Source of the DNA: a virus
Lineage: Duplodnaviria > Heunggongvirae > Uroviricota > Caudoviricetes
Length of the DNA: 40,763 bases
Direction: 5' to 3' (one strand)
IMG/VR virus record: IMGVR_UViG_3300029156_000001
Location: 128,001-168,763 of that record
This document shows positions 37,290 through 39,941 of the stretch, piece after piece (position 1 is the stretch's first letter; every line of letters begins with the position of its first letter). The translations under genes were made by a program, and so were the position numbers. The notes under the pieces were generated by a model. The model was not told the DNA's origin. It was given only the letters and a program-made list of their open reading frames with translations, and ran no database searches.

Positions 37290-37775
37290 CTAGTAGTCGC
37301 CAAGAATGGCCTTAACGATTTCCAAACCCTCCCGAATGGTAGTAACTCGGAAGCCAGTGCATTCGTTGATCATAGCGTGATCGTGCAAATTGCCAGATTC
37401 TTCCATGATTACTACCGATGGAATTCTGTTGGCGTCTGCCCATGCAATTTCCATACAGGTACCGATAGATACTCGCTCGGTTCCCAATAGGTTTACGAAT
37501 AGAACACTGGTATTTATGCAATCGAATCTGTCGCGAGTGGTGATGCCACGAGCGGTACTCATGTTAGTGAACGCCGCACTATCAATGTCGCCATCGTCGT
37601 AGTGATCTTTGATGGGCTCAGTACACTCGCGAAGGTAAACCTTCGCTCGTAGAGGGCTCACGGCCTTGATGCTGCTACGTAGTAGCTGATCCTTTACTTC
37701 TTGACGCCAGTCAGTTGCCTCGCCGTAAGAGAGGCCACTGATAGGGCCCGCCAAATAAACTGTCTTATGTACCAT
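37290..37775 (-). CDS. Nucleoside 2-deoxyribosyltransferase-like protein
   Basis: VYLAGPI, WR, SP.R, RD..D, S.GT.MEI.WA. Confidence 0.8.
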   Translation of the reverse strand: MVHKTVYLAGPISGLSYGEATDWRQEVKDQLLRSSIKAVSPLRAKVYLRECTEPIKDHYDDGDIDSAAFTNMSTARGITTRDRFDCINTSVLFVNLLGTERVSIGTCMEIAWADANRIPSVVIMEESGNLHDHAMINECTGFRVTTIREGLEIVKAILGDY

Positions 37776-38210: not shown

Positions 38211-38401
38211 ACTATCCAAAGTGCCCGTTTGAGGTTACGATGATTCGTTCTTCTTATGGCGACACACCATGCCTCCAACTTCACTTCGGGAGAGGCGTCG
38301 TCCCACATCTTTTGAACCATCTGTGAAAAGATAGAGTTGTTGTGCGGGCACAATATAGACTTAACCAAAGAGGGCGGCAGTTGAGTTGTATATCGGTTCA
38401 T
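38207..38401 (-). CDS. Small hypothetical protein
   Basis: ATGA overlaps on both sides. Confidence 0.6.
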   Translation of the reverse strand: MNRYTTQLPPSLVKSILCPHNNSIFSQMVQKMWDDASPEVKLEAWCVAIRRTNHRNLKRALWIV

Positions 38402-39462
38402 GCTGCTTCTTTTACCTCTTCGAGAACCAATTTCCAGACCTTCTCCTCGATCTCTTTCTCATCGAGGAGAGCAAACACCAAACCACATTCACGGTTCGGC
38501 ACATTATCTTGGACCCACAGGGCGTACGTTTTTCTCGACTGGTTTTCACCAATCTCAGAAAGCATACGATTGCGACTGGCATGAGCATCGGTGAAGATAC
38601 GATTATGGATACCCTGTACGTGAGCACGCACGTCGTCAAAATCACGAGCGATTGCAGGGGGCAGTTGCTTTACCGTTACGCCGTACTCGCGGCCACGAAT
38701 AAGATCTACTACGCCCTTCGGGCTTAGATAGTTGAGCAGTCTGTGGATACGGAGGTAAGTAGGGCTCTTGACCTTCACTCTCAGGCCGCAGCCGAAACGT
38801 GCTACGTATCCTTCGGTGTTTTCTTCCCACTCGATCTCGCCAGCGATGTTGATGTCGTACCGCTGCGGCCTACGAAAGTTGCATACCTCAGCCACTTGGT
38901 CAACTCTACGCTGATGCCACTCGGTACCATTATGGTCGAAGATTGCGAGGAGGGCCAAGAATGATTCGCCTCGGTAATCTACTACAATTCTGTTTTCAGG
39001 ATACACAATCTCGAAAACAGGAGTGCAGCCATCCGGTAGATGACGCCAATTGTATTGCTGTAGCATTTCTGTACCAGCGATTGCCTGATCAGATTCCATG
39101 CTGCCCGGCGTAGCCAGTTTCCAACGGACTTCATTCCAGATCGGTTCCGTAGCCTGATAGCCAATACCACAGGACCCGTCAAGCTTTTCGAATACTTCCA
39201 CGCCGTTCTTCCAGGGAAGAGCGTCGGCGTGGGTGTCTGGACGTTCGTTGAGATTGAAGAACTTTTCAAACGGACGGGCCACCACGGTCCCGTCCGTGTG
39301 AAAGATGATGCCGCGAGCCTGTCGGTTCACGTCGTTCCACTCATCATTGATGTGCGTACCCTGTGTGTATTTGAATAGTGTCAGAAATCCTGATCTACTT
39401 GCGGTAACACGACCCGCTTCGACTTCCTTCCACAACTTATTCAACAAGATGGGGTCTTTCAT
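38398..39462 (-). CDS. T4 Rnl1-family RNA ligase
   Basis: ARG..F, RPF.KFFN..E, EKLDGS (motif I), FEI..P.NRIVV.Y, EGYV, KVKS..Y...H. Confidence 0.9.
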   Translation of the reverse strand: MKDPILLNKLWKEVEAGRVTASRSGFLTLFKYTQGTHINDEWNDVNRQARGIIFHTDGTVVARPFEKFFNLNERPDTHADALPWKNGVEVFEKLDGSCGIGYQATEPIWNEVRWKLATPGSMESDQAIAGTEMLQQYNWRHLPDGCTPVFEIVYPENRIVVDYRGESFLALLAIFDHNGTEWHQRRVDQVAEVCNFRRPQRYDINIAGEIEWEENTEGYVARFGCGLRVKVKSPTYLRIHRLLNYLSPKGVVDLIRGREYGVTVKQLPPAIARDFDDVRAHVQGIHNRIFTDAHASRNRMLSEIGENQSRKTYALWVQDNVPNRECGLVFALLDEKEIEEKVWKLVLEEVKEAA

Positions 39463-39941
39463 TGCCAAGTCCTTTTTTTGATGACGTTGCGGATAGCTGC
39501 TCTTGAAACGTCGTACTCTTGTGCTAAGACGCCATAGCTTTTGCTGGGGTAAATATTCCTGATGTGATGCACTTGTTCTGTTGTCAGTTTACTGCGACCA
39601 TGCTGCTCTTTAGTTACACTTACTCTACGAGACTTGCTGTCCATGTCACGAACGTTATCTTGTCGTGTGCCCAAGAATAAGTGTGACGGACGTACACACA
39701 GCCTGTTATCGCACTTATGTAAAACGCACTTGCTTCTTGGATCCTGCACATAAAGTGCGTATGATACCCTGTGAGTCTTTAGTATTTTCTTTTGTTGTGT
39801 ATCCCAAATGATACCATAGCCACAACTGGTGCCTCCGCTCCACTCCCAACATTGGGTCGGGAAATTACCGTCTGCCCCATAAACGCCTGAGCGTTTATTG
39901 GTTTGAGATAGTAGTTTGTTTAGTAGAATCGGATCCTTCAT
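39433..39941 (-). repeat. Peptide-level direct repeat MKDPILLNKL (39912-39941 and 39433-39462), synonymously recoded
   Basis: ATG AAG GAT CCG ATT CTA CTA AAC AAA CTA versus ATG AAA GAC CCC ATC TTG TTG AAT AAG TTG. Confidence 0.95.
39459..39941 (-). CDS. HNH homing endonuclease (HNH_3 type with C-terminal HTH)
   Basis: CWEW.G....GYG, HRVSY, VLHKCDN..CVRP.HLFLGT..DN..D...K.R, SKLT..QV..IR, LA..Y.VS...I..V.....W. Confidence 0.92.
   Translation of the reverse strand: MKDPILLNKLLSQTNKRSGVYGADGNFPTQCWEWSGGTSCGYGIIWDTQQKKILKTHRVSYALYVQDPRSKCVLHKCDNRLCVRPSHLFLGTRQDNVRDMDSKSRRVSVTKEQHGRSKLTTEQVHHIRNIYPSKSYGVLAQEYDVSRAAIRNVIKKRTWQ

Follow-up and report, generated by a model that had tools for sequence, protein, structure and literature searches.

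A phage HNH endonuclease gene that begins with the first ten codons of the adjacent RNA ligase gene: a putative splicing-free homing element with replacement of the host gene 5′ end

In the genome of an uncultured phage, a free-standing HNH endonuclease gene and the RNA ligase gene that directly follows it start with the same ten residues, MKDPILLNKL, encoded by two copies that differ at every nucleotide where a synonymous difference is possible. The layout is, with high probability, that of an HNH element inserted without splicing after codon 10 of the ligase gene, with replacement of the displaced codons. The favoured full model (probability roughly 0.6, by analogy with known elements) is a splicing-free homing element: the old ligase start would have been fused to the nuclease, and the replacement start is predicted to resist the element's own cut.

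Locus and features

The window, i.e. the whole stretch of DNA analysed (40,763 nt), is the last part of a 168,763-nt virus record that has matching ends. The HNH/ligase sequence is found, identical and free of variants, in two contig sets of one study; both are probably its source, and they are not independent. One 60-kb contig spans it, also variant-free. The two runs in which it occurs carry the label aquatic metagenome. The features are as follows (coordinates in the window; basis in brackets):

38398..39462, minus strand: T4 Rnl1-type RNA ligase gene, complete, 354 aa, proposed host gene of the insertion (Pfam, PHROG, profile, motif)
39433..39462, minus strand: downstream copy of ligase codons 1-10, the ligase start; synonymous divergence from the upstream copy is maximal (12/30 nt differ)
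39433..39911, minus strand: putative mobile unit of 479 nt that comprises the HNH body and replacement codons 1-10 (copy spacing, missing in relatives; boundaries inferred)
39459..39462, minus strand: ATGA, in which HNH stop and ligase start overlap (sequence)
39459..39941, minus strand: free-standing HNH endonuclease gene, intact; the 160-aa product has a helical bundle predicted at its C-terminus (Pfam, PHROG, alignment, model)
39470..39474, minus strand: AAGGA at the end of the HNH reading frame, 7 nt ahead of the ligase start codon; candidate ribosome-binding site that the element would supply (sequence; function inferred)
39648..39740, minus strand: HNH_3 core, residues 68-98 (Pfam match)
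39912..39941, minus strand: upstream copy of ligase codons 1-10 (MKDPILLNKL), the in-frame HNH start (sequence)

The ligase matches Pfam RNA_lig_T4_1 (PF09511; E 2.4e-16) and PHROG 562 (E 7e-60). Its family profile matches the T4 RNA ligase 1 chains 2C5U, 5TT6 and 9DO4 (E ~1e-28), and K93, D95 and G96 (KxDG motif) are invariant among 57 homologues. With the PF09511 match, the motif and its full length, it is of the T4 Rnl1 type.

The HNH protein matches Pfam HNH_3 (PF13392; E 1.1e-8, 35 bits for a gathering cut-off of 24.8) and PHROG 59 (E 1e-25). It keeps every one of the 21 columns that are invariant in an alignment of 13 family members, with H75, C77, C82, H87 and N96 in place; given the Pfam cut-off, the conserved core and the open frame, it belongs with the HNH_3 endonucleases. 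Near-invariant W11 of the family is lost. The AlphaFold model (mean pLDDT 84, pTM 0.59) has three C-terminal helices; a search of solved structures with the HNH profile gave no match up to E 0.1. The genome carries four more HNH genes (G000:C1 2998-3408, 22783-23232, 33957-34316 and 120323-120610), none with a duplicated neighbour start (N-terminal match scores 0-7). A 22-nt piece of the HNH gene (window 39833-39854) matches a second place in the 60-kb contig of run X2, perhaps a paralogous HNH gene.

The genome encodes 25 tRNAs. One of them, outside the window (G000:C1:20945-21020), has a CUA anticodon and is a possible amber suppressor; TAG ends 24/109 long frames, so there is no clear recoding. 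A gene resembling those for CCA-adding enzymes (labelled after its homologue in locus L016) lies ~1.7 kb upstream of the HNH/ligase locus, across the record end. Two phages of the clade have a related HNH gene that overlaps the CCA-adding-enzyme gene at its 3′ end (L001:366-875 and L016:2522-3004), which suggests a recurrent HNH landing site in the clade; the window genome has no HNH gene there.

Relatives of the locus

Ligase loci were compared when ligase identity was at least 48% and the 5′ end was intact (23 loci; L093 and L095, whose 5′ end is missing, were excluded). None of the 23 has a duplicated ligase start, and 22 have no HNH gene directly upstream of the ligase, so the HNH gene is optional, as expected of a free-standing homing endonuclease. 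HNH-less alleles pass directly from MKDPILLNKL into WKEV, as the original prediction had anticipated. No near-identical empty allele was found: the run search listed two runs, from one study and likely the source, whose contigs contain neither an uninterrupted joint nor a variant; no RNA run was among those listed. A relaxed DNA pattern search gave 23 stretches, among which there was no new ligase or HNH locus.

HNH-ligase adjacency requires no capture of a start, since it also occurs without duplication. In L016, an HNH gene (39% identical) with an ordinary HNH start lies directly upstream of the ligase gene with an ATGA overlap. In Streptomyces phages Comrade and Stigma, an HNH gene directly precedes an RNA ligase gene and the two have no common N-terminus. 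The L016 HNH was considered as direct ancestor of the window HNH and rejected: it belongs to a different clade and is not sister in the tree.

Two observations concern an HNH-less relative. The ORF directly before its ligase gene (L001:2114-2482), which is not an HNH gene and has no Pfam match, also starts with MKDPI, by chance or as a relic of the same process. Its nucleoside deoxyribosyltransferase-like gene (L001:3694-4683) encodes 329 aa, vs 161 aa for that of the window (37290-37775); the in-frame insert looks LAGLIDADG-like by eye, and Pfam found the transferase only.

Divergence and polarity of the two copies

Both ORFs and both 30-nt copies were verified, and the readings made beforehand stand at the nucleotide level. 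The HNH copy is ATG AAG GAT CCG ATT CTA CTA AAC AAA CTA; the ligase copy is ATG AAA GAC CCC ATC TTG TTG AAT AAG TTG. All 9 degenerate codons differ, with 12/30 nt changed; by calculation, this peptide allows no more. The HNH stop TGA overlaps the ligase ATG. Identity between the copies ends abruptly after codon 10. No longer peptide is repeated on one strand within 4 kb anywhere in the 168,763-nt genome.

For two independent spellings of the peptide, about 6 differences of 12 are expected. The probability of 12/12 is 6.7e-4 with the codon usage of the genome, 6.4e-4 with that of 15 related ligases and 4e-5 with position-specific usage; the choice of this locus from a very large scan is not corrected for in these values. 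With the same reservation, the probability of 11 or more differences is 7e-3 to 9e-4 and that of all nine codons differing is 0.012.

The 15 related ligases are non-redundant (L016 is included; duplicates were removed, as were the two starts that diverge most). They are synonymously saturated: 1245/3023 ligase-body codons are shared (41%). The native copy is therefore recognisable only in codons 6-10. There, the HNH copy differs from six relatives by 2, 3, 2, 2, 4 and 3 nt, vs 8, 7, 7, 7, 6 and 7 nt for the ligase copy. This signal comes mainly from the three TTG leucines of the ligase copy; TTG accounts for 1/43 leucine codons in codons 2-11 of the 15 relatives. Codons 2-5 give no polarity signal; the codon most frequent among the relatives is used by the ligase copy at positions 2, 3, 5 and 9, where the HNH copy has a less common one. 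Position-specific likelihood favours the HNH copy as the typical (native) one by only ~4 bits.

HNH-less alleles had been predicted to resemble the HNH copy. This holds for the four distinct alleles that encode the full peptide: they differ from the HNH copy by 4, 6, 4 and 6 nt, from the ligase copy by 11, 9, 9 and 8 nt and from each other by 3-7 nt, vs 12 between the window copies. It fails at the codon level, where the 15 ligases share 34/103 codons with the HNH copy and 40/103 with the ligase copy, so that neither is closer. Given saturation, a nucleotide signal confined to codons 6-10 and an overall likelihood difference of ~4 bits, the HNH copy is suggested, not proven, to be the native start. 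A second recoded patch, considered at ligase codons 18-29 because of a dip in codon sharing, was rejected: most relatives show the same dip.

The same insertion could have occurred with neutral spelling: an HNH gene already located before a foreign ligase allele, as in L016 with its ATGA overlap, would have been recombined in together with ten foreign codons; the enzyme would cut elsewhere, as free-standing enzymes usually cut at a distance (PMC2988022); and 12/12 would be the tail of saturated divergence (41% shared codons, about half of the possible differences expected) picked out by a large scan. This is unlikely. The probabilities of 12 (6e-4 to 4e-5) and of 11 or more differences (7e-3 to 9e-4) stand against it, tempered by the choice of the locus from a very large scan, as do TTG at all three leucines and the position of the L016 HNH, which is not sister to that of the window.

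Selection of the difference against repeat recombination that deletes the HNH gene, rather than for escape from cleavage, is improbable. It would account for the longest identical in-register run of 5 nt and for the lack of a deleted form in the two contig sets, which are not independent and whose contigs drop rare variants. Recombination between 30-nt repeats should be suppressed by a handful of mismatches, and the clustering of the atypical spelling by the junction is more in keeping with a recognition site. Both pressures may act together.

Origin of the shared peptide

The best 119 of 1361 ligase matches and the best 119 of 141 HNH matches were compared. The exact MKDPILLNKL start is present in 18/119 of these best-ranking ligase homologues and MKDPILLN in 39/119. 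It starts none of the 119 HNH homologues (best of 141), and DPIL is absent from their first 60 residues. The HNH family starts with an RFWxKV helix, at the place of which the window HNH carries ligase residues. The sister HNH P0122 (54% identity, support 99/97) keeps the ordinary RFWxKV start; its genomic context was searched for and not located. The ligase residues and the lost W in the window HNH, the start of its sister and the homologue counts together indicate, by sequence comparison, that the peptide is of ligase origin and does not belong to the HNH family. The ownership expected from an HNH gene inserted into the ligase gene is thus borne out, and the idea of a selected N-terminal tag common to both proteins, raised as the alternative, fails.

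It is very improbable that the HNH gene was upstream first and had its start overwritten later by a copy of the ligase start, or that the two genes share a selected tag. The commonest codons at positions 2, 3, 5 and 9 of the ligase copy, with minority codons in the HNH copy, speak for such a history. The peptide is, in contrast, found in no other HNH of the clade and in none of the best 119 of 141 HNH matches. Moreover, a copy made in place would begin identical, and retention of 10/10 residues through 12 silent changes is unlikely in a variable HNH terminus. The upstream copy (39912..39941) would be read as the old ligase 5′ end of the recipient, and the downstream copy (39433..39462) as a replacement 5′ end brought by the element.

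Expression signals and splicing

AGGA is enriched ahead of long ORFs in the genome (19/121 vs 3.6 expected), and the promoter scan was at chance level (2 vs 1.4). The ATGA overlap possibly couples the translation of HNH and ligase; such overlaps are common in related phages, so this one is not diagnostic.

The insertion had been described as intron-less, and this agrees with the findings: no intron-like Rfam match at E up to 1 (one chance miRNA match elsewhere), and coding sequence throughout the 479 nt between the copies. The HNH gene has its own start and stop and appears to lie in neither an intron nor an intein; the insert has no match to a ribozyme core, unlike a group I intron with an HNH ORF. 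In group I introns, the exon ends in U and the intron in G; inspection found no register inside the repeat that fits this rule. A cryptic self-splicing intron, envisaged because HNH genes are often located inside phage group I introns (PMC2988022), is hardly credible given these results and a ligase gene with its own ATG and candidate ribosome-binding site.

Survey of other HNH loci

HNH loci with usable flanks (186 non-redundant loci, from 225 ORFs) were scored for the match between their N-terminus and that of the next gene. The window locus has the best score of the 186 (48), which was reached by none of 12,000 shuffled non-cognate pairs. The screen for HNH/neighbour pairs with matching N-termini, suggested at the outset, gave one clear case (the window), one plausible and one doubtful; 25 further HNH loci added none (score at most 15). 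The layout of an HNH gene with the start of its neighbour is rare.

The plausible case (score 32; 0.09 expected) lies in a prophage-like region of Noviherbaspirillum malthae (L276:1435-2431). An HNH gene of the same family starting with MFGIDHAIVK precedes a gene starting with MFDLDHTLVK. Among 401 genomes, two syntenic HNH-less relatives (L366 and L367) share the end of the upstream gene, with no HNH gene between it and the downstream gene. GC3 of the downstream gene is 0.50 in codons 1-24 vs 0.88 after. Codons 1-10 do not separate the copies (14 vs 13 and 15 vs 12 nt). From its sequence, this locus is plausibly an older case of N-terminal capture by an HNH gene.

The other locus (L331:1480-2632; score 29, 0.17 expected) is doubtful as a capture case. 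Its HNH start, ETDPVKLAERFW, resembles ECDPFAMHERLW, the start of the next gene, which has no Pfam match and which we take, from its motifs, to be terminase-like.

Proposed mechanism

The mechanism is proposed by analogy with that of the WHO elements of yeasts (PMC7282813), with the 5′ end in place of the 3′ end. The HNH body and replacement codons 1-10 (479 nt) would form the mobile unit. In uninterrupted ligase alleles, a site straddling the codon 10/11 junction would be nicked by the HNH enzyme; nicking is also the activity of the related Mob enzymes (PMC2988022). During repair, the left arm would find its partner in the genes upstream together with the fused copy, and the right arm would find its own in the body of the ligase gene. 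Repair would leave the nuclease with the start, ribosome-binding site and first codons of the recipient, and would join the replacement start to the ligase body, so that the ligase frame stays whole without splicing.

Several features would follow. Owing to the pairing of the left arm, each recipient would refresh the fused copy. Both copies would thus have diverged as ligase alleles under ligase constraint, which would give ten identical residues and silent changes with no selection on the HNH terminus. If cutting is limited to alleles that differ from the element's copy, the two copies would be biased toward maximal difference. The fused copy would be safe from the cut because codon 11 onward is HNH sequence. 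In the predicted structure, captured residues 4-12 form a helix (pLDDT ~82) in register with the RFWxKV helix of the family; the fusion is probably tolerated since the first helix of the ligase would replace it.

Immunity conferred by the replacement start is plausible: in WHO6, resistance is given by 8/24 synonymous changes (bioRxiv 10.64898/2026.08.13.744650), so silent changes can give resistance. The original prediction of a rebuilt and recoded ligase 5′ end is kept for the replacement layout; rebuilding in place is not, as the element most likely brought a 5′ end that was already divergent. Points against the full model are that free-standing phage endonucleases often cut far off, that the layout is rare, that W11 is lost and that polarity is absent at the codon level.

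Relation to known elements

WHO elements of Torulaspora yeasts are non-splicing homing units that replace the 3′ half of FBA1 (PMC7282813; bioRxiv 10.64898/2026.08.13.744650). As proposed for the phage locus, an endonuclease gene is accompanied by a replacement end of the host gene, with the displaced native fragment on the opposite side (PMC7282813). Resistance of WHO elements is through allelic sequence difference, the phage counterpart of which is predicted. WHO elements differ in their target, the 3′ half of a nuclear gene, and in their LAGLIDADG enzyme, which is transcribed independently, and they form clusters (PMC7282813). In the phage locus, the enzyme is a predicted HNH, only 10 codons at the 5′ end are concerned, the putative displaced fragment is the in-frame start of the nuclease and the differences are purely synonymous. 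The phage element would thus work alike and is no member of the WHO elements proper, which have HO-related LAGLIDADG enzymes at the FBA1 3′ half vs an HNH at the ligase 5′ end here.

Mobile endonuclease ORFs (mORFs) of fungal mitochondria create gene hybrids: a foreign C-terminus arrives with the ORF and the native terminus is displaced (Allomyces atp6; Glomus atp6, atp9, cox2 and nad3; PMC3630166), and GIY genes duplicated with the atp9 N-terminus have been described (PMC7487136). Likenesses to the phage locus, as proposed, are a foreign gene terminus brought by the endonuclease element and an ORF sometimes in phase with the host gene. In mORFs, the displaced native terminus is nearer that of relatives; in the phage locus, this is seen in the four full-peptide alleles and in codons 6-10 and is absent at the codon level over 15 relatives. 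Differences are that mORFs are mostly C-terminal, encode LAGLIDADG or GIY-YIG enzymes, are organellar and have the foreign piece fused to the endonuclease vs the putative native piece in the phage locus. The layout common to WHO elements and mORFs, an endonuclease gene between two copies of a host terminus with the host frame whole, is that of the phage locus.

The Seg and Mob genes of T-even phages ('intronless homing') resemble the locus: they are phage-borne and include free-standing promoterless HNH genes that rely on the signals of their neighbours, with start/stop overlaps (PMC2988022). They differ in being intergenic and in encoding enzymes that cut hundreds or thousands of bp away; no duplicated host terminus is reported in the parts of that source consulted (PMC2988022).

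In Cluster O mycobacteriophages, an unspliced HNH gene (Corndog gp56) lies at the start of the tape-measure gene (PMC4351075). It starts (L441:659-1270) at the ATG that begins the tape-measure gene of Catdawg (L442:145). In the Corndog tape-measure gene, the opening codons are respelled. Like the phage locus, Corndog has a non-spliced HNH gene that holds the host ATG, with the host gene restarting behind. It differs in that the ATG alone is taken, no peptide is common and the host restart is non-canonical; it is not described as a terminus replacement in the consulted parts of PMC4351075.

Replacement of a 5′ terminus by a phage endonuclease was not found described in the literature covered, mainly papers open without subscription; the accessible portions of PMC10448857 and PMC12724721 make no mention of it. 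By comparison with these systems, the phage 5′-fusion form appears to be new, and its logic would be that of the known terminus-replacing homing elements of yeasts and fungal mitochondria.

Significance

The pair of 10-codon copies narrows the predicted target to ~30-45 bp, so an allele-specific cleavage test would be simple. Terminus replacement would be a third route, beside RNA splicing and protein splicing, by which a selfish nuclease resides inside a phage coding sequence; this route has so far been worked out in yeast nuclei and fungal mitochondria only. It would account for annotated phage genes with chimeric starts and for HNH proteins with odd N-termini, and would be a natural counterpart of engineered recoded-rescue gene drives. 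More tentatively, and with the balance still against it, phages may harbour a widespread third homing class, distinct from introns and inteins and acting as a natural home-and-rescue drive, in which the HNH invades the opening codons of a gene, wears the N-terminus and ribosome-binding site of its victim and restores a cleavage-proof start, with an arms race between alleles that would drive maximal synonymous recoding.
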